Of a DNA stretch of 64,000 nt, positions 25,315-37,580 are shown piece after piece (position 1 is the stretch's first letter; each line of letters starts with the position of its first letter). The notes beneath the pieces were generated by a model. That model did no database searches. It saw only the letters and a program-made list of their open reading frames with translations, and was not told the origin of the DNA. The stretch comes from Candidatus Eiseniibacteriota bacterium (GTDB taxonomy: Bacteria > Eisenbacteria > RBG-16-71-46 > DASYSL01): positions 45,891 to 109,890 of the forward strand of contig JANPEF010000153.1 in assembly GCA_031431875.1 (NCBI GenBank). The letters run 5' to 3'. The position numbers and the translations under genes were made by a program.

Positions 25315-25509
25315 GACGGGGCTCCGGGCTCGGGAATTCGTACGGTTGATCCTGCGATCTGCCGAAGGTACGGGAGGGCAGTGGGCATTGTGACTCCGTC
25401 CGCCCTCGGGCGTCCGGTTTCGGCTCAAGCTCCTTTGCAACGTGCCGATGACGGATGCGTCGGGGGAATGCGCCCCCGAAAACGGTTGCGATTCAGGGAG
25501 GAAACCGCC

Positions 25510-26652
25510 GTGGTCGTCGTCAGCTACTCGGGCAAGGAAATCAACGCCAAGCTGGTCTATTACGGCACCGGGCTTTCGGGCAAGACGACGAACCTCGAGG
25601 CCATCTACGAAGCCGTCCCCGACAACAGTCGCGGGAAGATGGTGTCGATGAAGACGCAGTCCGACCGCACCCTGTTCTTCGACCTGCTGCCGCTCGACCT
25701 GGGCGAGGTCATGGGGTTCAAGACCCGCTTCCTCCTCTACACGGTTCCGGGCCAGGTCTTCTACAACGCCACGCGCAAGCTGGTGCTCAAGGGTGCCGAT
25801 GCGATCGTGTTCGTCGCCGACTCCGAACGCGGCAAGATGGACGAGAACAAGGAGTCGCTGTCGAACCTCCGCGCCAACCTCGCGGAGTACAAGGTCAACC
25901 TCGACGACCTGCCGTGGGTGCTGCAGTACAACAAGCGCGACCTGCCCGACGTCTACACGGTCGAGGAACTGAATCGCGAGCTCAACCCGAGCAACGTCCC
26001 CTGGGTCGAAGGCGTGGCCACCAAGGGCACGGGCGTCCTCGAGACGTTCCGCCTGGTGAGCCAGATGCTGCTCGAGCGGGTGACCAAGGACCTGCGACGG
26101 TCGCCCTCGACGACCGGCGCGCGCGAGGTGCCACGTCCCGCACCGGCCCAGTCGCCGAGTGCGCCGCAGGCGGCCTCGGCCGGTCCGGTGGCGATGCCGT
26201 CGTCGCCCCCACCGCCGACGTTCCGCGCGACTGCCGCTCCGGTCGCGCCGCAGGCTCCGAGTCCGTTTGCGCCGCAGCCGGTCGCCGCCGCACCATTGTC
26301 GCCGCTGCCTGCCATCTCCATGCCGCAGGTCCCCGGCCTGGTCACCGGATCATCGCCCTTCACTCCGTCCAGCCGGGGAGAGATCGGGACGCACCCGGCC
26401 GCAGACCGTGCCGACCGGAACGCGCCTGCCCCACCGCCGCTGCGCAGCATGCAGAAGGAGGGCCCCGGGCCGGTCATGGACCTCGGGACGAACTTCCAGC
26501 GCAACATCCAGTTGCCCACCGAGGAGCGCCTGGCCCGTCCGGCGGTCGCGAGCGAGCCGCTGGTGGTGCCCATCACGCTCGACGGCTCGGTGCGGGAGAT
26601 CGTCCTGCGCATCGTCATCGAGCAGAAGGAGCGCGTCGACCGCGCCGCTTGA
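25510..26652 (+). CDS. mglA: MglA-like small GTPase with Pro-rich C-terminal extension
   Basis: EINAKLVYYGTGLSGKTTNL, DRTLFFD, TVPGQVFY, QYNKRDLP; GTG 25510 after GGGAGGA. Confidence 0.85.
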   Translation: MVVVSYSGKEINAKLVYYGTGLSGKTTNLEAIYEAVPDNSRGKMVSMKTQSDRTLFFDLLPLDLGEVMGFKTRFLLYTVPGQVFYNATRKLVLKGADAIVFVADSERGKMDENKESLSNLRANLAEYKVNLDDLPWVLQYNKRDLPDVYTVEELNRELNPSNVPWVEGVATKGTGVLETFRLVSQMLLERVTKDLRRSPSTTGAREVPRPAPAQSPSAPQAASAGPVAMPSSPPPPTFRATAAPVAPQAPSPFAPQPVAAAPLSPLPAISMPQVPGLVTGSSPFTPSSRGEIGTHPAADRADRNAPAPPPLRSMQKEGPGPVMDLGTNFQRNIQLPTEERLARPAVASEPLVVPITLDGSVREIVLRIVIEQKERVDRAA

Positions 26653-26731
26653 CACCCTGCCGTACCGGGGGCCAGACTCGCAGGGCGTGCCGGGATCTTC
26701 CCGGTGCGCCCTGAGTGCTTTCGGAGGAGCG

Positions 26732-27313
26732 ATGCGTTCGTCCTGCGCCGCCACCCTGTTCGTGCTTCTCCTCGTCGCCACGCCCGGGCATGCCCAGGGC
26801 GGGGCGGGCTTCCCGTCGACGGCGATCCCGTCGAGCGAGTCGTACTCCACGCCTCGGTCGACGAATCTCCTGCCGCGCTCGATCTTCGATCCCTCGCGGC
26901 TGACCATCTCGAACTCGATGGTCTTCGGCTACAGCTCGGGCGGATACGGCTTCAGCCCCGGCTCGGCCGGGCTGTTCACCTCGAGCCTCGGCTACCGCAT
27001 CGCGAACAACGCCGCCCTGCACGTCGACGTCGGCGCGCACATGAACCCCGCGTTCGGCGGCGGCGGCACCGAGAAGGGGATCTTCCTCCAGAGTGCGGCG
27101 TTCGACTGGCGCCCGACGCGCAACTCGCTGCTTCGCGTCGAGTACCGAGACATGCGCTCGCCGCTGCAGGCCGGCTACGGGTACGGCAACGCATACGGCT
27201 ACGGCAACGGCTACGGAACGGGGCTCGGCGGGTGGGGCACGCCTTACGGCGCCAACCTCGGCGCGGGAGCTCCGCTCGGCGGCGGCCTGCCGGGCGATCC
27301 GCTGCGCAACTGA
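26732..27313 (+). CDS. Exported hypothetical protein with beta-strand core and Gly/Tyr-rich tail
   Basis: GGAGG RBS, signal peptide ending GHA-Q, alternating beta pattern, GYGYGNAYGYGNGYG. Confidence 0.7.
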   Translation: MRSSCAATLFVLLLVATPGHAQGGAGFPSTAIPSSESYSTPRSTNLLPRSIFDPSRLTISNSMVFGYSSGGYGFSPGSAGLFTSSLGYRIANNAALHVDVGAHMNPAFGGGGTEKGIFLQSAAFDWRPTRNSLLRVEYRDMRSPLQAGYGYGNAYGYGNGYGTGLGGWGTPYGANLGAGAPLGGGLPGDPLRN

Positions 27314-27317
27314 GCGC

Positions 27318-28154
27318 GTGACGACGCGACCGCACTCCCTCCTCGAGACACGACTGCGGGGCCTGCGCGCCGAAGGGCGCGCGGGCCTCGTGCCGTTTCT
27401 CACCGCCGGCTATCCCGACCGCGCGATCAGCGCGCGCCTGCTCGTCGCCTGTGCGCGCGCGGGGGCGACCGCCATCGAACTGGGGCTGCCGTTCTCGGAT
27501 CCGCTTGCCGATGGCCCCGCGCTGCAGGAGGCCGCGCAGGTTGCGCTCGACGGTGGCACCACCGTGGCGCACGCCCTGGCGCTGGTGCGCGACTTCGCCG
27601 CGACGCCCCAGGGTGCTGCCGTTCCCATCGTGATCATGACCTACGCGAACCCGGTGCTCGCCTACGGGTTCGAGCGCTTCGCTCGCGATGCCGCCGCCGC
27701 CGGCGTCAACGGCGTGATCGTGTCGGACCTGCCGCTCGAGGAGCGCGCGGACGTGTGGGCCGCCTTTGCCGCGGCGGGACTCGACACGATCCCGCTTGTC
27801 GCGCCGACGACGGCGGCCGCGCGCGTGCCCGGGATCGCGGCGCGCGCCTCGGGCTTCGTCTACTGCCTGTCGCGCACGGGAGTGACCGGCGATGCGCGTG
27901 CCTTCGCCGGCGAGCTCGACGACCTGGTGCGCGCTGTGCGTCTCCACACCGACGTGCCGATCGGCATCGGCTTCGGCGTCGACGACGCGGCCAAGGCGCG
28001 CTTCGTCGCGCAGCGGGCCGAGGCGGTGATCGTGGGGGCGGCGGTGGCGCGGCGGATCGCTGTGGCGCGGGCGGCGGGGGGCGATGCGGTCGTCGCCGCC
28101 GTGGAGGCGTTCGTGGGCGACCTCGTCGCGGCGGTGGCGGGAGCCCGGCCCTAG
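27318..28154 (+). CDS. trpA: Tryptophan synthase alpha chain
   Basis: FLTAGYP, ELGLPFSDPLADGP, MTYANP, SRTGVTG, IGFGV. Confidence 0.96.
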   Translation: MTTRPHSLLETRLRGLRAEGRAGLVPFLTAGYPDRAISARLLVACARAGATAIELGLPFSDPLADGPALQEAAQVALDGGTTVAHALALVRDFAATPQGAAVPIVIMTYANPVLAYGFERFARDAAAAGVNGVIVSDLPLEERADVWAAFAAAGLDTIPLVAPTTAAARVPGIAARASGFVYCLSRTGVTGDARAFAGELDDLVRAVRLHTDVPIGIGFGVDDAAKARFVAQRAEAVIVGAAVARRIAVARAAGGDAVVAAVEAFVGDLVAAVAGARP

Positions 28155-28179
28155 CGGTCACCGGGCCGCCCCCGGCGCA

Positions 28180-28216
28180 CAAAAGAGGGGAGCCGCGACA
28201 ACCGCGCGGCTCCCCT
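28180..28216 (-). terminator. Intrinsic terminator on the minus strand
   Basis: 12-bp perfect stem AGGGGAGCCGCG/CGCGGCTCCCCT, 7-nt loop, followed by CTTTTGT on minus. Confidence 0.8.
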
Positions 28217-28271
28217 GTTCAGTGTGACCCTTGCCACCCGGATCCTTCCAGGCGCCGTCGTTTCCGTCGGC

Positions 28272-28334
28272 CTAGCGCAACCACCAGAACAGGTCGGGCC
28301 AGGTCCACGCGAGATGATCGAGTTCGTCGAACAT
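28272..28334 (-). CDS. 20-aa Trp-rich peptide MFDELDHLAWTWPDLFWWLR
   Basis: GGAGGG RBS 5 nt upstream of ATG, GC-typical codons, own promoter and terminator; below ORF-track cutoff. Confidence 0.6.
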   Translation of the reverse strand: MFDELDHLAWTWPDLFWWLR

Positions 28335-28389
28335 CGTCGCCCTCCGTGAGACGGAATCGAGCGGAAGCGTTTCTCCCGCTCCACCCTCG

Positions 28390-28417
28390 TCATCGACCGG
28401 GCGGCGGGGGACTTGAG
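28390..28417 (-). promoter_or_regulatory. sigma28 (FliA)-type promoter
   Basis: CTCAAG-N14-GTCGATGA (TCAA-N15), same form as the csrA promoter. Confidence 0.55.
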
Positions 28418-28472: not shown

Positions 28473-30680
28473 TCAGAGGAACTTGAGGATCACGATCGTG
28501 CGGTCATCGGCCGGTCCGTCGCGGTGCCAGTCGGCGGCGGCGGCGAGCGCCCGGGCGGCAATCCGATCGGCCCGGAGGCCGCGATCGCGAGCGAGGACCT
28601 GGCCCAGGCGTTCGGGGTCGAACGGCGTGTCGCCCCGGAGGGCGTCGGTCAGACCGTCGGTGTAGAACGCGATCAGGCTGCCGCGCTCGAAGGTCCACTC
28701 GATCTCCTCGTAGGTCTCGCCCGAGGAGACGCCGAGGATCAGCCCGCCGTGCTCGACCTCCTCGTGGCGGCCGTCGGGGTGGACGACGATCGGCGGGTTG
28801 AGGCCCGCGTTTGCCCACGTCAGCGTGCGCCGCCGCGCGTCGAGCCGCGCGTAGGCGAGGCAGACGAACTTCTCGGGCTGGTGCAACTGCACCAGTTCCT
28901 CGTTGACGCGGACGAGTGCTGCGCCGGGGGCGAGGTCGTCGTCGACGCGGCTGCGCAGCCCTGCCTGGACGCCGGCGAGCAGCAGTGCCGCCGGCAGACC
29001 CTTGCCGCAGACGTCGGCGATCGCCACGCCGAGCGTGCGCGGGCCGAGCGGGAGGAAGTCGTAGTAGTCGCCGCCGATCTCGCCGGCCGGCACGGTCGCG
29101 CCGGCCAGGTCGACGGTGGGGAGCACCGGTGCGGTGTGCGGCAGCAGGCGCTCCTGGATGCGGCGCGCCAGTTGCACGTCGCGCTCGAGCCCGGCGCGTT
29201 CGACCAGGCGATCGTGGAGCACCGCGTTCTCGACGCGTGCCGACGCCTCGCGCGCGAACGCGGCCACCTGCTCGCGCTCGCCGGCGTCGAACCATGGACC
29301 CGACAGGCGGGGCCCGAGCGCGAGCACGGCGCGGCAGCGATCCTCGGCGAACAGCGGCACCAGCAGCGATGCGCCGTCCTCGCCGAGAGCGAGCTCGCCG
29401 GCCGTGAGCGGCGCGCGCGCCAGCGACAGCCGCTCGATCGCCGCCGCGGGCGGCGGATCGGCGAGGCGGCCGTGGCGCCTCGAGGCCTCGCCGTGCAGCG
29501 TCGCGAAGCGTGCAGCGCCGGCGGGGGAGACGGCGAACACCGCGCAGTGTTCGAGCCCGAGCGCGCGCACCAGCTCACCGGCCGCGTCGTCGAGCACCTG
29601 CGCCAGCGGCGCGAACGTGGCCGCAGCACTCACCGCGCCGGGTGTGCCGGGCTGCCGCGGCCGCTCGAAGCCAAAGCCGGCGCGCGGCCGCCCGCGCGGC
29701 AGCAGCGCGCCGCCGTCGAACACGCGATGGACGACGGTCGCGTAGCCGAAGCCCGCGGGCACGAGCAGAAGCCACAGCCCCGCGAAGTCCTCCCCCGGCC
29801 ACGCGATTGCGGGCGCGACGTTCTTGGCCAGCGTCAGGAGTGCGAGCGGCACGAGCCCGAGCGTGACGCTCCACACGAGTGCGGTGAGACGCGGACGATG
29901 CTGCGCCGCAGCGCGCCGGTACCCGCCAACGAACGTGACGACGGCGGCGAGCACGGCGCCGCAGAGGAACAGCGCGGCGAGCGCTTCGTAAGCGCCGCCC
30001 GCGAGGAAGCGCGCGGCCGGCGCCGGCGCCATCCCGGAGCGCGACGACAGGTCGAGTCCGACGGCGAGGCCGAACAGCACGATGGCGCCGCCGTATCCGA
30101 TCGCGGCGAGGCCGCGGCCCAGGCGTCCGGGTTGACCCTCGGGAAAGCGGGCGAAGAAGTCGACGAGCGCTGCCGGTAACAGCAGCGTGGCGAGCCCGCG
30201 CAAGGCCTCGAGCGCGGGGCCGCCCGGCGGACCGGCGAGCCACGCCGGTGCGACCGGATGGGGGGCGAGCGCCAGCGCGGCCGAGAACGCGAACAGCGCG
30301 AAGGCGAGGACCAGGCGATCGCCGCGCGCCGCCAGGGCAACCGCGCCGACCAGCGCGAATGCGGCGGCGAGCACGAGAGTGACGATGGAACGGGCGCGTT
30401 CACTGGCGGCGGGTGCGGTGGCCGTGAGCGTGACCTCGCGATCACCGATGCGCGCGACGTAGGTCGCACCCGGAACGGCCGGGGGCGGGGCAGCGAGCCG
30501 GTCACCCACGGCGATGTCGGCGCGATCGGCCGCCCCGCCCCGGGTCACGGCCATGACGCGATCGCCGCGCAGGCGCACGCCCCAGCTGCCGCGCGACGGC
30601 AGCTCGAGCGCGACGGCGAGCACAATCAGTCCCGCCACAATGCCGTACCCCCACACGGAGGCCCGGAGGGAACGCGTCAT
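28473..30680 (-). CDS. Membrane-bound PP2C/SpoIIE (RsbU-like) phosphatase with PDZ-like, multi-TM and GAF regions
   Basis: IGGDYYDF, IADVCGKG, YTDGLTD, DDRTIV motifs; about 7-8 TM; AGGAGG RBS. Confidence 0.88.
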   Translation of the reverse strand: MTRSLRASVWGYGIVAGLIVLAVALELPSRGSWGVRLRGDRVMAVTRGGAADRADIAVGDRLAAPPPAVPGATYVARIGDREVTLTATAPAASERARSIVTLVLAAAFALVGAVALAARGDRLVLAFALFAFSAALALAPHPVAPAWLAGPPGGPALEALRGLATLLLPAALVDFFARFPEGQPGRLGRGLAAIGYGGAIVLFGLAVGLDLSSRSGMAPAPAARFLAGGAYEALAALFLCGAVLAAVVTFVGGYRRAAAQHRPRLTALVWSVTLGLVPLALLTLAKNVAPAIAWPGEDFAGLWLLLVPAGFGYATVVHRVFDGGALLPRGRPRAGFGFERPRQPGTPGAVSAAATFAPLAQVLDDAAGELVRALGLEHCAVFAVSPAGAARFATLHGEASRRHGRLADPPPAAAIERLSLARAPLTAGELALGEDGASLLVPLFAEDRCRAVLALGPRLSGPWFDAGEREQVAAFAREASARVENAVLHDRLVERAGLERDVQLARRIQERLLPHTAPVLPTVDLAGATVPAGEIGGDYYDFLPLGPRTLGVAIADVCGKGLPAALLLAGVQAGLRSRVDDDLAPGAALVRVNEELVQLHQPEKFVCLAYARLDARRRTLTWANAGLNPPIVVHPDGRHEEVEHGGLILGVSSGETYEEIEWTFERGSLIAFYTDGLTDALRGDTPFDPERLGQVLARDRGLRADRIAARALAAAADWHRDGPADDRTIVILKFL

Positions 30681-30764: not shown

Positions 30765-30793
30765 CTCAAGCCCGCCCCGTGGGCTGCCGATCA
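30765..30793 (+). promoter_or_regulatory. sigma28-type promoter of csrA-flgM
   Basis: CTCAAG-N15-GCCGATCA (TCAA-N16), close to TAAA-N15-GCCGATAA. Confidence 0.65.
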
Positions 30794-30854
30794 CCCGGGC
30801 GAGGGGCGGAAGGGCCTGTGGACCCGATTCCGCCCCCGACCAGGGAGGTCCATC

Positions 30855-31121
30855 ATGTTGGTCCTGACAAGGAAGTTGGGCGAGAACATCCGCATCGGGG
30901 ACGTGATCAAGATCACGGTCCTCGAAGTGCGCTCGGGCCAGGTGAAGCTCGGCATCGACGCGCCGCCGGAAGTGAAGGTGCATCGCGAGGAGATCTATGC
31001 GCGCATCCAGGCCGAAAATCGCCGGGCCGCAGCGACGTCGCCGGAGGCTCTCCGTGACGCCGCCCGGGATCTCCCCTGGTCGGCCGAAGAGCGCGGGCCG
31101 AAAGGACCTTCTCGACCCTGA
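30855..31121 (+). CDS. csrA: Carbon storage regulator CsrA (long, flagellar-associated type)
   Basis: MLVLTRK...IRIGD...[16 protein letters not shown]; C-terminal extension. Confidence 0.95.
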
Positions 31122-31158
31122 CCGCCGCGATCCGGTTCGCGGCCCGGGAAAACGGACC

Positions 31159-31356
31159 ATGAACCAGGACTCCAATCGCTCGCCCCGACTCGCCGTGCTG
31201 TCCCTCGTCGAAGCGATCGGCACGCCCGCCGCAGCCGTCCGTGCGGACCGCGTGCGCGCGGCGCGAGCCCGCGTCGACGGGGGCTACTACGATCGCATCG
31301 ACGTCCGCCGAGCGCTCGTCGCCGCCCTGCTCGACCAGCTGGTCGCATCGTCCTAG
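31159..31356 (+). CDS. flgM: Anti-sigma28 factor FlgM-like protein (65 aa)
   Basis: VRADRVRAARARVDGGYY...RRALVAALL matches the FlgM C-terminal motif; fliA nearby. Confidence 0.65.
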   Translation: MNQDSNRSPRLAVLSLVEAIGTPAAAVRADRVRAARARVDGGYYDRIDVRRALVAALLDQLVASS

Positions 31357-35595: not shown

Positions 35596-36483
35596 ATGGC
35601 CGACCTCAAACTCGTTCCGCCCGCCCGCACCTCGCGGGGCACCGCCCGCAAGGGGGACGCCCGCGAGCACTTCGTGGCGCTGGCTCGTCCGACGGTGCGC
35701 ACGATCGCGGTGACCAGCGGAAAGGGCGGCGTCGGCAAGAGCACGGTCTCGGCGAACCTGGCCGTCGCTCTGGGCGAGCTCGGCGCCCGCGTCATCCTGT
35801 TCGACGGCGATCTCGCCCAGGCGAACCTGGACCTGTTGCTCGGCCTGTCGCCGCGCTGGGACCTGGGGCATGTGCTGCGCGGGGAGAAGACGCTCGACCA
35901 GATCGTGGTCGAGGGACCGCATGGCGTCCGCCTCGTGCCCGCCGCTTCGGGTGACCGCGATCTCGCCGACCTCGACGACTTCCGGCGCGAGGGCCTGTAC
36001 CGCGAACTGTCGCGCCTGTCGGTCGACGCCGACCTCGTGATCATCGACACCGCCTCGGGAGCCTCGCACCTCACCTCGTCGTTCGCCCGTGCGGCGTCCG
36101 AGCTGGTGGTGGTGACGACGACCGAGCCGACGTCGTACTCCGATGCGTACGGCCTCCTCAAGGTGCTCGTCGCCCAGGGCCTCACGGGCACGCCGAACGT
36201 CCTGGTCAATCGCGCGCCGTCGCTCGAGGAAGCCGAGGAGGTTGCACACGACCTCGCCTCGCTGACGCGCCGCTTCCTCGATCGCAACGTGAACTCGCTT
36301 GGCGCCGTGCCCGACGACCCCGCGGTCGGGCAGGCCGTGCGTCGCCGTCGTCCCGTCGTCGAAGCTGCTCCGAACAGTCCGTCCGCCCTCGCCTTCCGCA
36401 CGCTGGCGGGTCGGTTGTGGGCCCGTCCGTCCGATCCGCGTCCGCAGGCGCTCTCCGGCGAGCGCCTGCGCCTGTCCGCCTGA
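35596..36483 (+). CDS. flhG: FlhG/FleN-family MinD-like ATPase
   Basis: SGKGGVGKS, DGDLAQANLDLLLGL, EPTSYSDAYGLLK; directly before fliA. Confidence 0.85.
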   Translation: MADLKLVPPARTSRGTARKGDAREHFVALARPTVRTIAVTSGKGGVGKSTVSANLAVALGELGARVILFDGDLAQANLDLLLGLSPRWDLGHVLRGEKTLDQIVVEGPHGVRLVPAASGDRDLADLDDFRREGLYRELSRLSVDADLVIIDTASGASHLTSSFARAASELVVVTTTEPTSYSDAYGLLKVLVAQGLTGTPNVLVNRAPSLEEAEEVAHDLASLTRRFLDRNVNSLGAVPDDPAVGQAVRRRRPVVEAAPNSPSALAFRTLAGRLWARPSDPRPQALSGERLRLSA

Positions 36484-36503
36484 ACCGTCCGAGGAGATCG
36501 CCC

Positions 36504-37580
36504 ATGCCCCGTCTCTCGTCGACTCCGTCGCGCGCCCCGAAGGGCACGCCCCGCCTCACCCTGGTCAAGGGCGGCCGCGGCAAGCCCGTCCGCTCCGCGG
36601 CACTCCGTCCGGTCAAGGCCGTCGCCCGTACGACGAAGGCGACGACCGTCGCGGCGAAGCCGCCCCAGGCGAAGAAGTCGACGAAGCTCGTGCCGGCAAA
36701 GGCGGCCAGGCTCGTGCCGGCCAAGGCGCCCGTGGCGCGCGTCGCGCCGCACACGGCGATGCTGCGTGCGCCGCTGGCGCTGGTGCCCAGGAAGCCGCTC
36801 AAGGGCGCGGCCGAGATCGCGGCGGCGCGGGCCCGCGCGGCGGCGGCGAATGCGGCCGATCCGCCGGTGCGCGTGGCGCGCGAGAAGCTGCTCGAGCGCT
36901 ACACGCCGCTCATCAAGTACGTCGTCGAGCGCCTGTCGGTCGGGCTGCCCAAGAACGTCGACCACGACGACCTCATGTCGGCCGGCATCCTGGGCCTGCT
37001 CGATGCCTACGACAAGTTCGATGCGTCGAAGGGAACGAAGTTCGAGACCTACGCGGTGTGGCGCATCAAGGGCGCCGTGCTCGACCAGCTCCGCGCGCTC
37101 GACTGGGCGTCACGCTCGATCCGCCGCAAGGCGCGCGAGGTCGAGGCCTCGACGCGCCGGCTCGACCAGCGTCTCGGTCGCGCGGCCTCCGACGAGGAGG
37201 TCGCCAAGGAGGCCAAGATGCCGCTGGCCGACTACCACCGGCTCATGGACCAGGTGCGGGGCGCGGTGCTGCTGTCGCTCGACGAGACGCGCTCGCCCGA
37301 GGAGGGCGACTCGCTCGGCCTGGCCGAGCTCATCGAGGACCCGAACGTGCCGGACGTGCTGGCGCGCATCGAGGAGGAGGAGACGCGTCTCGTCCTGCTC
37401 GACACGCTCAACCGCCTGCCCGAGCAGGAGCGCATTGTGGTCGCGCTCTACTACTACGAGCACATGACCCTGCGCGAGATCGGCGTCACGCTCGGCATCT
37501 CCGAGTCGCGCGTGTCGCAGGTCCACTCACGGGCCGTCGTCCGTCTCAAGAGCCGCGTCCGTCGCGCGCTCGCCGCCTGA
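36504..37580 (+). CDS. fliA: RNA polymerase sigma28 (FliA/WhiG) with long basic N-terminal extension
   Basis: DDLMSAGILGLLDA, FETYAVWRIKGAVLDQLR..DW, GISESRVSQVH; GAGGAG RBS. Confidence 0.92.
   Translation: MPRLSSTPSRAPKGTPRLTLVKGGRGKPVRSAALRPVKAVARTTKATTVAAKPPQAKKSTKLVPAKAARLVPAKAPVARVAPHTAMLRAPLALVPRKPLKGAAEIAAARARAAAANAADPPVRVAREKLLERYTPLIKYVVERLSVGLPKNVDHDDLMSAGILGLLDAYDKFDASKGTKFETYAVWRIKGAVLDQLRALDWASRSIRRKAREVEASTRRLDQRLGRAASDEEVAKEAKMPLADYHRLMDQVRGAVLLSLDETRSPEEGDSLGLAELIEDPNVPDVLARIEEEETRLVLLDTLNRLPEQERIVVALYYYEHMTLREIGVTLGISESRVSQVHSRAVVRLKSRVRRALAA

Follow-up and report, generated by a model that had tools for sequence, protein, structure and literature searches.

The 20-codon open reading frame that converges on trpA in the window (the whole 64,000-nucleotide stretch of Candidatus Eiseniibacteriota DNA analysed here) belongs to what, judged from sequence, is an unannotated and new class-wide family of micro-proteins, with a gene architecture like that of small RNAs and a place in the sigma-28 regulon. 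We give a probability of roughly 0.6 to the best explanation as a whole, that this is a stand-alone, sigma-28-driven small-protein gene, gated by CsrA, the product of which acts on the adjacent phosphatase. What has the textbook look of a 'WW leader plus terminator' is here a protein-coding mini-gene and not an attenuator, and the peptide of the window is a polar-headed local form in a family that is found class-wide in the uncultured phylum Eisenbacteria. At 17-25 residues, such proteins are missed by gene callers, and this one could be a candidate new micro-protein regulator of PP2C signalling.

The short ORF (sORF; MFDELDHLAWTWPDLFWWLR, 20 codons plus stop, 28272..28334, minus strand) is defined by its translation and by a frame conserved in homologues, with the start ATG at 28334 and the stop TAG at 28274..28272. 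Four of the 20 codons encode Trp, including the tandem TGG TGG at 28286..28281, and the encoded peptide, which is acidic (net charge about -3) and not hydrophobic, contains W12-P13-D14 and ends in R20. A Shine-Dalgarno sequence, GGAGGG (28340..28345, minus strand), lies 5 nt before the ATG, contains a GGA and, in the consensus fold, pairs in part with codons 8-9. The sole terminator of the region in a consensus scan is intrinsic, with a 12-bp GC stem followed by CUUUUGU (28179..28216, minus strand; stem 28216..28186, then CTTTTGT in the DNA); it starts 55 nt past the ORF stop, shares its hairpin with the 3' end of trpA, and has a counterpart at the equivalent place in the homologues. The genome has a single trpA (27300..28154, plus strand; TIGR00262, 221 bits), whose end at 28154, on the opposite strand, makes the two genes convergent. 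The sORF is itself single-copy, in a genome of 70% G+C. The sequence-only reading had singled out the ORF with its strong GGAGGG ribosome-binding site, the four Trp codons with their tandem pair, the terminator 55 nt later and the orientation towards the 3' end of trpA, and each of these features is present, the terminator being oriented with the minus strand.

The trpL leader of E. coli is an ORF of very few codons, in which tandem Trp codons come shortly before the stop, and leader peptides in general conserve only their regulatory codons. A Trp-sensing leader at the present locus, in which stalling at the tandem Trp codons would alter the terminator and hence antisense transcription into trpA, would explain why the tandem Trp is the most invariant part of the family and lies 2-3 codons before the stop, as in trpL, with a terminator following and with trpA convergent in family f1 (that of the window) and in f4, and one gene further off in f2. 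Beyond the terminator, however, there is no co-directional gene; a competing antiterminator was not seen by eye in the minimum free energy (MFE) folds of 13 homologues, in which the terminator is an independent hairpin; and the residues that flank the tandem pair (D, I/L, F, L/I and R) are kept at the amino-acid level while their codons change synonymously. Such regulation would, in addition, run the wrong way, as read-through under starvation would oppose trpA. Furthermore, the place of trpA is taken by an uppP-like gene in families f7, f14 and f16, and by an unrelated gene in one further genome (G004). Because this neighbour varies between families, adjacency to trpA represents inherited synteny in part of the clade, and not a defining link; trpB lies on another contig than trpA. 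Sensing of Trp by a leader is hence hardly probable, and the earlier suggestions of a trp attenuator, possibly a stranded one, and of a Trp-sensing switch give way to that of a peptide conserved for its amino acids.

Searches in relatives bear directly on this conservation. A blastn search with the 321-nt intergenic stretch against 40 relatives gave matches in five genomes, four from the genus of the window genome and one from another, in each of which the 20-codon frame is intact and lies just after the phosphatase gene (peptides MMDHLMDFAFSWPDLFWWLR, MMDHLMHLAFSWPDLFWWLR and MFERLVQLAFSWPDLLWWFR). With blastn and a covariance model, both of which are blind to frame, the locus was recovered with the same frame kept and the ORF intact in five other reference genomes (G001, G002, G004, G005 and G007), and a back-translated pattern added about 12 further metagenome loci. 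Across 13 distinct ORF sequences, all four Ala codons (GCG, GCC, GCA and GCT) are used at position -13, the stop is TAG or TGA at a constant position, the sole indel is an in-frame deletion of 3 nt, the ATG is retained, and synonymous differences occur among the C-terminal codons. For the metagenome loci, which were found with the back-translated pattern, the conservation of the C-terminus is in part a circular result, but the frame-blind set behaves like the pattern-derived loci. The peptide does not account for all of the sequence conservation, some of which stems from selection on RNA structure, considered below. The substitution pattern nevertheless marks the ORF as what appears to be a genuine conserved coding mini-gene, beyond chance. 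Pattern matches in Gaetbulibacter, Yeosuana and Roseobacter, and at loci L038, L043 and L048, lie inside longer frames and were set aside as chance. A protein database search with a 40-aa query returned no match but the query itself, and a search of viral contigs returned none.

Four loci on high-GC metagenome contigs, encoding frames of 36 aa (L044) or 40 aa (L047, L049 and L064), share the end [SC]WPDLFWWLR-stop with the sORF and are otherwise unrelated. A tyrosine integrase gene lies about 120 nt downstream in the three longer cases and about 1.1 kb downstream in L044, and an identical core of 20-23 nt, GACCTGTTCTGGTGGCT, is common to the integrase-linked and the host copies. We considered whether these frames represent a wider family of soluble peptides, and rejected this in favour of the simpler explanation of attP-like sites that carry a spare sORF 3' end. 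It is likely, from the shared core and the adjacent integrase genes, that an integrative element carries this spare 3' end in its attP, which would make the mini-gene an integration target in the manner of tRNA genes. Locus L064 (2001-2839) also holds an SLT gene and many small ORFs.

The family extends well beyond these close homologues. A tiny ORF with a strong Shine-Dalgarno sequence lies downstream of every phosphatase orthologue that we inspected in other genera (MRDAFRLFGWGEWSDIFWWIRH, MLLFEFYWADIFWWIRR, MDPVILGLLIDIFWWLHR, MEFGILGLLIDIFWWIHR and MDSEVFGLLIDIFWWLRR), and a family pattern, consisting of GGAG, an ATG within 18-48 nt and D-x-F-W-W-x-[RKH], with neither frame nor stop imposed, matches 41 of 206 genomes of the phylum, compared with 0 for a reversed-pattern control. 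In the loci fetched, the ATG proved to be in frame in 30 of 30, and the stop followed directly after [RK]R in 29 of 30. The 41 genomes are a lower bound, as a GTG-started variant with D-L-L-W-W was found by eye in one further family. Members are 17-25 aa long and end in D[ILF][FL]WW[LI][RK]R-stop; at least 10 families share the motif D-[ILF]-[FL]-W-W-[LI]-[RK]-R, the codons of which vary synonymously, and WW is its sole invariant feature family-wide. Conservation is concentrated in the last 8-9 residues up to the stop, and the N-terminal part varies in length and sequence. For 11 family members, no Pfam-A or NCBIfam profile matched at E up to 10, and the family motif was not found in a literature search. 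Two genomes are unusual. In G084 (L157, G084:C41, about 2178-2246 of the locus), the sORF stop TAG is replaced by TTG, and the frame stays open through a 60-codon spacer into the downstream gene for a PDZ-multiTM-GAF-PP2C protein, which is either natural, as a fusion or read-through, or due to an error in the sequence. In G074, there are two diverged copies of the micro-protein gene (C113:7660-7726 and C215:3960-4026), with the products MFWISLAAVLVFDIFWWIRR and MWIILSVAALAFDIFWWIR....

Outside family f1, the N-terminal segment is strongly hydrophobic (mean Kyte-Doolittle 1.2-3.2; for example, MLLGVLALMITLDLFWWLRR), and fits a putative mini-transmembrane helix, with WW at the membrane interface and basic residues at the end. 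The same segment is polar or aromatic in family f1 (-0.6 to 1.2), and in the window peptide, with a mean of -0.47 and four acidic residues, a membrane-insertable hydrophobic segment is absent. The proposal, made from the window alone, of a membrane-interface micropeptide thus comes closest to the evidence: it agrees with the hydrophobic, WW-ended relatives, but not with the polar N-segment of the window peptide itself. As the latter lacks the hydrophobic segment that defines the family, its mode of action may differ. The concentration of conservation at the C-terminus could also be read as a sign of nascent-peptide arrest, in which the last eight or so residues, still within the exit tunnel when the ribosome reaches the stop codon, would exert regulation in cis, as TnaC does. 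The arrest signature of TnaC comprises W12, D16 and P24 before the stop. Conservation of the last 8-9 residues right up to the stop beside a variable N-part is what such a mechanism would produce; yet the TnaC signature is absent, as is a conserved downstream gene in cis, the hydrophobic N-segments resemble membrane helices and not arbitrary spacers, and in family f11, where the phosphatase gene does lie downstream, a terminator-like hairpin separates it from the sORF. We therefore assign very little probability to arrest.

The promoter places the gene in a regulatory context. Sigma-28 recognizes the consensus TAAA/TCAAG-N14-15-GCCGATAA. About 50 nt upstream of the sORF ATG lie a -35 element of the sigma-28 (FliA/WhiG) type, CTCAAGT (28411..28417, minus strand), of which CTCAAG is invariant in all 17 close homologues, and, 14 nt after TCAAG, a -10 element delimited by homologue comparison, GGTCGATGA (28390..28398, minus strand; consensus GCCGATAA). 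In the close homologues, CTCAAG(T) is followed after 14 nt by GCCGAT(A/C/G)C and, 4-6 nt further on, by a conserved hairpin; CTCAAGT-N14-GCCGATAC is invariant among them, and at the -10 position most homologues have GCCGATAC, GCCGATCC or GCCGATGA. The window promoter reads CTCAAGT-N13/14-GTCGATGA, and its -10 element, GTCGATGA, has only 6 of the 8 positions of the GCCGATAA consensus. Motifs of this type also precede the flagellin genes of flagellated genomes of the same order (G012 and G010; CTCAAGTTTCGGTCATCGCGGCCGATGA and CTAAAGTTCCTGCGAGTAATGCCGAAAA), and the pair formed by csrA and a flgM-like gene in the window itself (CTCAAGCCCGCCCCGTGGGCTGCCGATCA, 30765-30793). Among loci from distant families, 16 of 34 have a strict motif within 300 nt upstream, compared with 2 of 609 background windows (Fisher p about 1e-20), so that a strict match is absent in about half of the distant members. 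Upstream of the sORF, inspection found no sigma-54 or sigma-70 promoter, and no conserved antisense promoter was seen at the locus. A gene for a FliA/WhiG-family sigma factor (36417..37580, plus strand; TIGR02479, 252 bits against a cut-off of 189.6), the true start of which is probably later in this frame, lies 8 kb from the sORF; mere co-occurrence with FliA is uninformative, as FliA/WhiG is nearly universal in the phylum. The predicted sigma-28-dependent transcription of the sORF is well supported by sequence.

A further motif of the sigma-28 type, TCAAGCTCCTTTGCAACGTGCCGATGA, occurs at 25425-25451, upstream of a gene for an MglA-like GTPase. The latter opens a co-directional block of mglA-like gene, small OMP-like ORF and trpA (25552-28154), which is syntenic with the sORF-phosphatase pair in several families, and the mglA-like gene and the OMP-like ORF are odd company for the genome's only trpA.

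The transcript is under constraint as RNA as well as through its peptide. We aligned 12 different transcripts over the stretch between the predicted start and a point 28 nt beyond the stop, and evaluated them with RNAalifold and with pair counts: 95% of cells in the predicted helices are paired, compared with 39-50% in slid controls, changes on both sides occur in eight pairs, and the observed values were reached by 0 of 500 shuffles. The 5'-terminal hairpin P1 (GGAGCGGGAG-AAACG-CUUCCGCUC, 28359..28382, minus strand) stands at the predicted transcript start, with 98.8% of cells paired and G-C/G-U alternation. The long-range helix P2 joins 7 nt 5' of the Shine-Dalgarno sequence (UUCCGUC, 28350..28356, minus strand, just upstream of it) with 7 nt 3' of the stop (GACGGAA, 28262..28268, minus strand, 4-10 nt past the stop codon), and five of its seven pairs covary between RNA types; helix P4 covaries as well. 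The predicted helices further include a hairpin at the start codon, and one formed by the WPDLFWWLR codons, the outer pairs of which take in the base after the stop and undergo G-C to C-G swaps. Downstream, hairpin P5 (CGCCUGG-AAGGAU-CCGGGUG, 28235..28254, minus strand) presents a GGA in its loop in the manner of a CsrA site. Its loop, A(A/U/G)GGA(U/C), is conserved across eight type-A RNAs, and its stem shows compensatory change (G-C to A-U in L050); P5 is absent from type-B RNAs. Overall, GGA is enriched about 2-fold relative to shuffles (8-12 motifs compared with 3.6-5.4 expected); the window RNA has 8 where 4.3 are expected, including one in the P5 loop and one at the Shine-Dalgarno sequence. 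The GGA loop of P5, the GGA at the ribosome-binding site and the general enrichment are hallmarks of CsrA-regulated mRNAs such as hag (PMC13443453), and CsrA probably gates translation of the sORF. The gene is thus under two constraints, one on the peptide and one on RNA structure.

These same features could mean that the RNA is the main effector, a sigma-28-dependent small RNA that would titrate or be bound by CsrA in the manner of CsrB or RsmZ, with the ORF secondary, or the transcript dual-function at most. Such a role would account for the 8-12 GGA motifs, for the conserved A-N-GGA-N loop of P5 with its covarying stem and the GGA at the Shine-Dalgarno sequence, and for covariation in P2 and P4; csrA lies behind the same type of promoter 2.5 kb away, with a fliW-csrA pair elsewhere in the genome, and there is a weak Rfam match to McaS (E=0.4). 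McaS is a CsrA-binding, dual-function small RNA. The score of this match is 24 bits against a gathering threshold of 42, however, and Rfam gave only sub-threshold matches in all (McaS/IsrA, 24.4 bits). The covariance model built on the window RNA reaches genera g1 and g3 only, with nothing but chance matches inside genes beyond them, because the RNA leaders differ between families; P5 is missing from type-B RNAs. The peptide motif, by contrast, is common to families with unrelated RNAs and leaders, the 5' UTRs of which range from 50 to about 280 nt. As the motif spans the class and the RNA model only two genera, the peptide is the older and more general feature. We regard the RNA as the main effector as unlikely, the two roles not being exclusive. 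Less probable by far, to the point of being scarcely credible, is a type I toxin-like membrane peptide with a structured mRNA that would lock its translation. The mRNAs of hok and aapA1 have a comparable locked architecture, and the tiny ORF here sits in a stable mRNA, in which a long-range 5'-3' helix encloses both Shine-Dalgarno sequence and ORF and the former is partly paired along with the start; but an acidic, non-hydrophobic peptide from a single-copy gene, held in strict chromosomal synteny with a signalling gene and with no conserved antisense promoter seen, fits such a toxin poorly. A micro-protein gene whose mRNA is itself probably regulated remains our preferred account.

Two observations concern the leaders of flagellated relatives. 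The sORF in L110, L112 and L114 (genomes G010, G014 and G012) is preceded by a conserved 5' leader of 230-280 nt, several stretches of which contain GGA; this leader may be a separate regulatory RNA element. The flagellin 5' UTRs of G010 and G012 (L059 and L060) share GGGUAYGGAAACCC and CACGGAYGGUG, as well as a Shine-Dalgarno sequence with GGA, in what looks like the two-site CsrA arrangement of B. subtilis hag.

The neighbour upstream of the sORF encodes a 735-aa membrane phosphatase (28473..30680, minus strand; Pfam and hydropathy), and ends at 28473, 138 nt before the sORF ATG. The protein is laid out as a first transmembrane segment, a weak PDZ-like stretch, about seven further transmembrane segments, a GAF domain (360-485) and a SpoIIE/PP2C domain (548-734); from hydropathy and the positive-inside rule, its N-terminus is predicted to be cytoplasmic, the PDZ periplasmic, and the GAF-PP2C part cytoplasmic. 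The sORF lies downstream of the PP2C gene in families f1, f2, f4, f14 and others, whereas in f11 it precedes that gene on the same strand and in f7 the two are divergent. The phosphatase gene is thus the constant neighbour of the sORF through three arrangements, with other neighbours changing. In flagellated f2 genomes, the pair resides inside a cluster of flagellar genes; those for flagellin, FlgL and FliW lie within 10-25 kb. This gene neighbourhood points to the phosphatase as a candidate target of the micro-protein. One form of such recognition would make the peptide C-terminus a ligand of the phosphatase PDZ, as in the peptide recognition of DegS. PDZ domains bind free C-termini, and the phosphatase family has a PDZ after its first transmembrane segment, which exceeds the cut-off in the G084 orthologue (37 bits) but falls short of it in the window (16 bits). 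The predicted topology, however, puts the PDZ in the periplasm, whereas the basic RR end of the peptide should be cytoplasmic, which argues against simple recognition of the C-terminus, and the window peptide lacks an export signal. We accord this form of recognition little probability; the contact proposed is with the phosphatase at the cytoplasmic face of the membrane.

Divergent from the phosphatase gene, csrA (30855-31121, plus strand; 90.7 bits) and a flgM-like ORF (31159-31356, plus strand), which matches at E=0.05 only, follow the promoter at 30765-30793 (context 30765..31356), 2.5 kb from the sORF. Peptide conservation and linkage to trpA or csrA had been proposed as a check on the sequence-only reading; the peptide is indeed conserved, whereas what it is linked to is the upstream PP2C phosphatase gene together with the sigma-28/csrA-flgM module, and not trpA in particular. 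This joining of csrA to a weak flgM-like ORF behind a sigma-28-type promoter is found in a genome without a flagellin partner for FliW.

FlhA is absent in all ten family f1 genomes, and flagellin is absent in those searched, with the exception of a 44-residue flagellin-like N-terminal fragment at a contig edge in G002 (G002:C26:1-132), in a genus that lacks FlhA; this may be contamination or an unassembled flagellin gene. A tblastn search of the window genome (G000) with the proteins of relatives found neither FliS nor flagellin. The genome keeps FliW followed by a second csrA (contig C115:16876-17700), and genes for FlhG-like and FliA proteins. The family thus lacks FlhA, flagellin and FliS but retains FliA, a FlgM-like ORF, two CsrA proteins, FliW, the phosphatase and the sORF, which argues for a regulatory rather than a structural role: the sORF belongs to a regulatory layer that survives flagellum loss. 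This loss coincides with that of the hydrophobic segment of the peptide. A relic or mimic of flagellin was also considered, in view of the peptide end LFWWLR, the flagellin end LLALFR in relatives, and the retention of FliW without flagellin; it was rejected because flagellated relatives have both flagellin and the sORF. The locus offers a way into the question of how loss of the flagellum rewires a sigma-28/CsrA/FliW module.

Together, these findings suggest a scheme in which sigma-28 would switch on the sORF from the promoter about 50 nt before the ATG, and transcription would end at the intrinsic terminator, to give a structured mRNA of about 200 nt and from it a 20-residue peptide. CsrA, itself gated by FliW, would probably control translation via the GGA at the Shine-Dalgarno sequence and those in hairpin loops. 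The functional part of the peptide would be the invariant C-terminal D-L-F-W-W-L-R, and the peptide could dock at the cytoplasmic membrane interface on the phosphatase, in or next to its transmembrane region. The analogies of SpoIIE and of HsbR-HsbA-FlgM (PMC6482189) suggest that this enzyme could set the activity of FlgM and sigma-28; docking would modulate this partner switch and form a feedback loop. Extended to its full reach, the scheme becomes an export-independent sigma-28 checkpoint, in which the micro-protein binds the PP2C phosphatase and closes a FlgM/sigma-28 loop that is gated by CsrA and FliW and outlives the flagellum. We offer this fuller version tentatively, and think it improbable in its entirety; if it were true, a protein of 17-25 aa would be a previously invisible component of the sigma-28 regulatory core.

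Among known systems, trpL and TnaC resemble the sORF in being very short ORFs with tandem Trp near the stop, followed by hairpins and a terminator; they differ in that the sORF has no downstream regulated operon, encodes a peptide conserved as protein, is not universally linked to trpA and has a sigma-28-type promoter. The sigma-28 small RNAs of the E. coli flagellar regulon, UhpU, MotR, FliX and FlgO, are derived from UTRs, depend on Hfq and act by base-pairing (PMC10578931). The sORF shares with them a short transcript, a sigma-28 promoter and a place in the late flagellar regulatory layer, but these RNAs lack a conserved ORF, whereas the sORF has one, stands as a gene on its own with CsrA-type GGA hairpins, and belongs to a genome that lacks flagellar structural genes. 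The hag mRNA of B. subtilis, which belongs to the CsrA-FliW-Hag partner switch, has a sigma-D promoter and GGA in both a leader hairpin and the Shine-Dalgarno sequence (PMC13443453). The sORF likewise combines a sigma-28-type promoter with GGA in a hairpin and at the Shine-Dalgarno sequence, in a genome that encodes CsrA and FliW, but its product is a 20-aa peptide and not flagellin, with which it coexists in flagellated relatives. In Pseudomonas, the PP2C HsbR, a response-regulator fusion, acts with HsbA and FlgM in a partner switch (PMC6482189). Here, too, a PP2C is encoded near flgM and sigma-28 components, and could provide a phosphatase route to sigma-28 that is free of export; unlike HsbR, however, it is an integral membrane protein with PDZ and GAF domains, no STAS partner was identified, and the Pseudomonas system has no known micro-protein. 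In E. coli, the small membrane protein MgrB modulates a membrane signalling enzyme, PhoQ, and thereby feeds back on its own regulon. Prli42 tethers the Listeria stressosome upstream of the PP2C RsbU (PMC6614362, PMC9840623). The family described here has no sequence similarity to either, is shorter, at 17-25 aa, has a sigma-28-type promoter and a PDZ-8TM-GAF-PP2C phosphatase as its proposed partner, and in the window occurs in a version without the hydrophobic helix. With MgrB and Prli42 it shares a tiny size (<50 aa), a single hydrophobic helix with an aromatic or basic interfacial end, a gene that lies beside its proposed target pathway or is controlled by it, and a history of having been missed by annotation.
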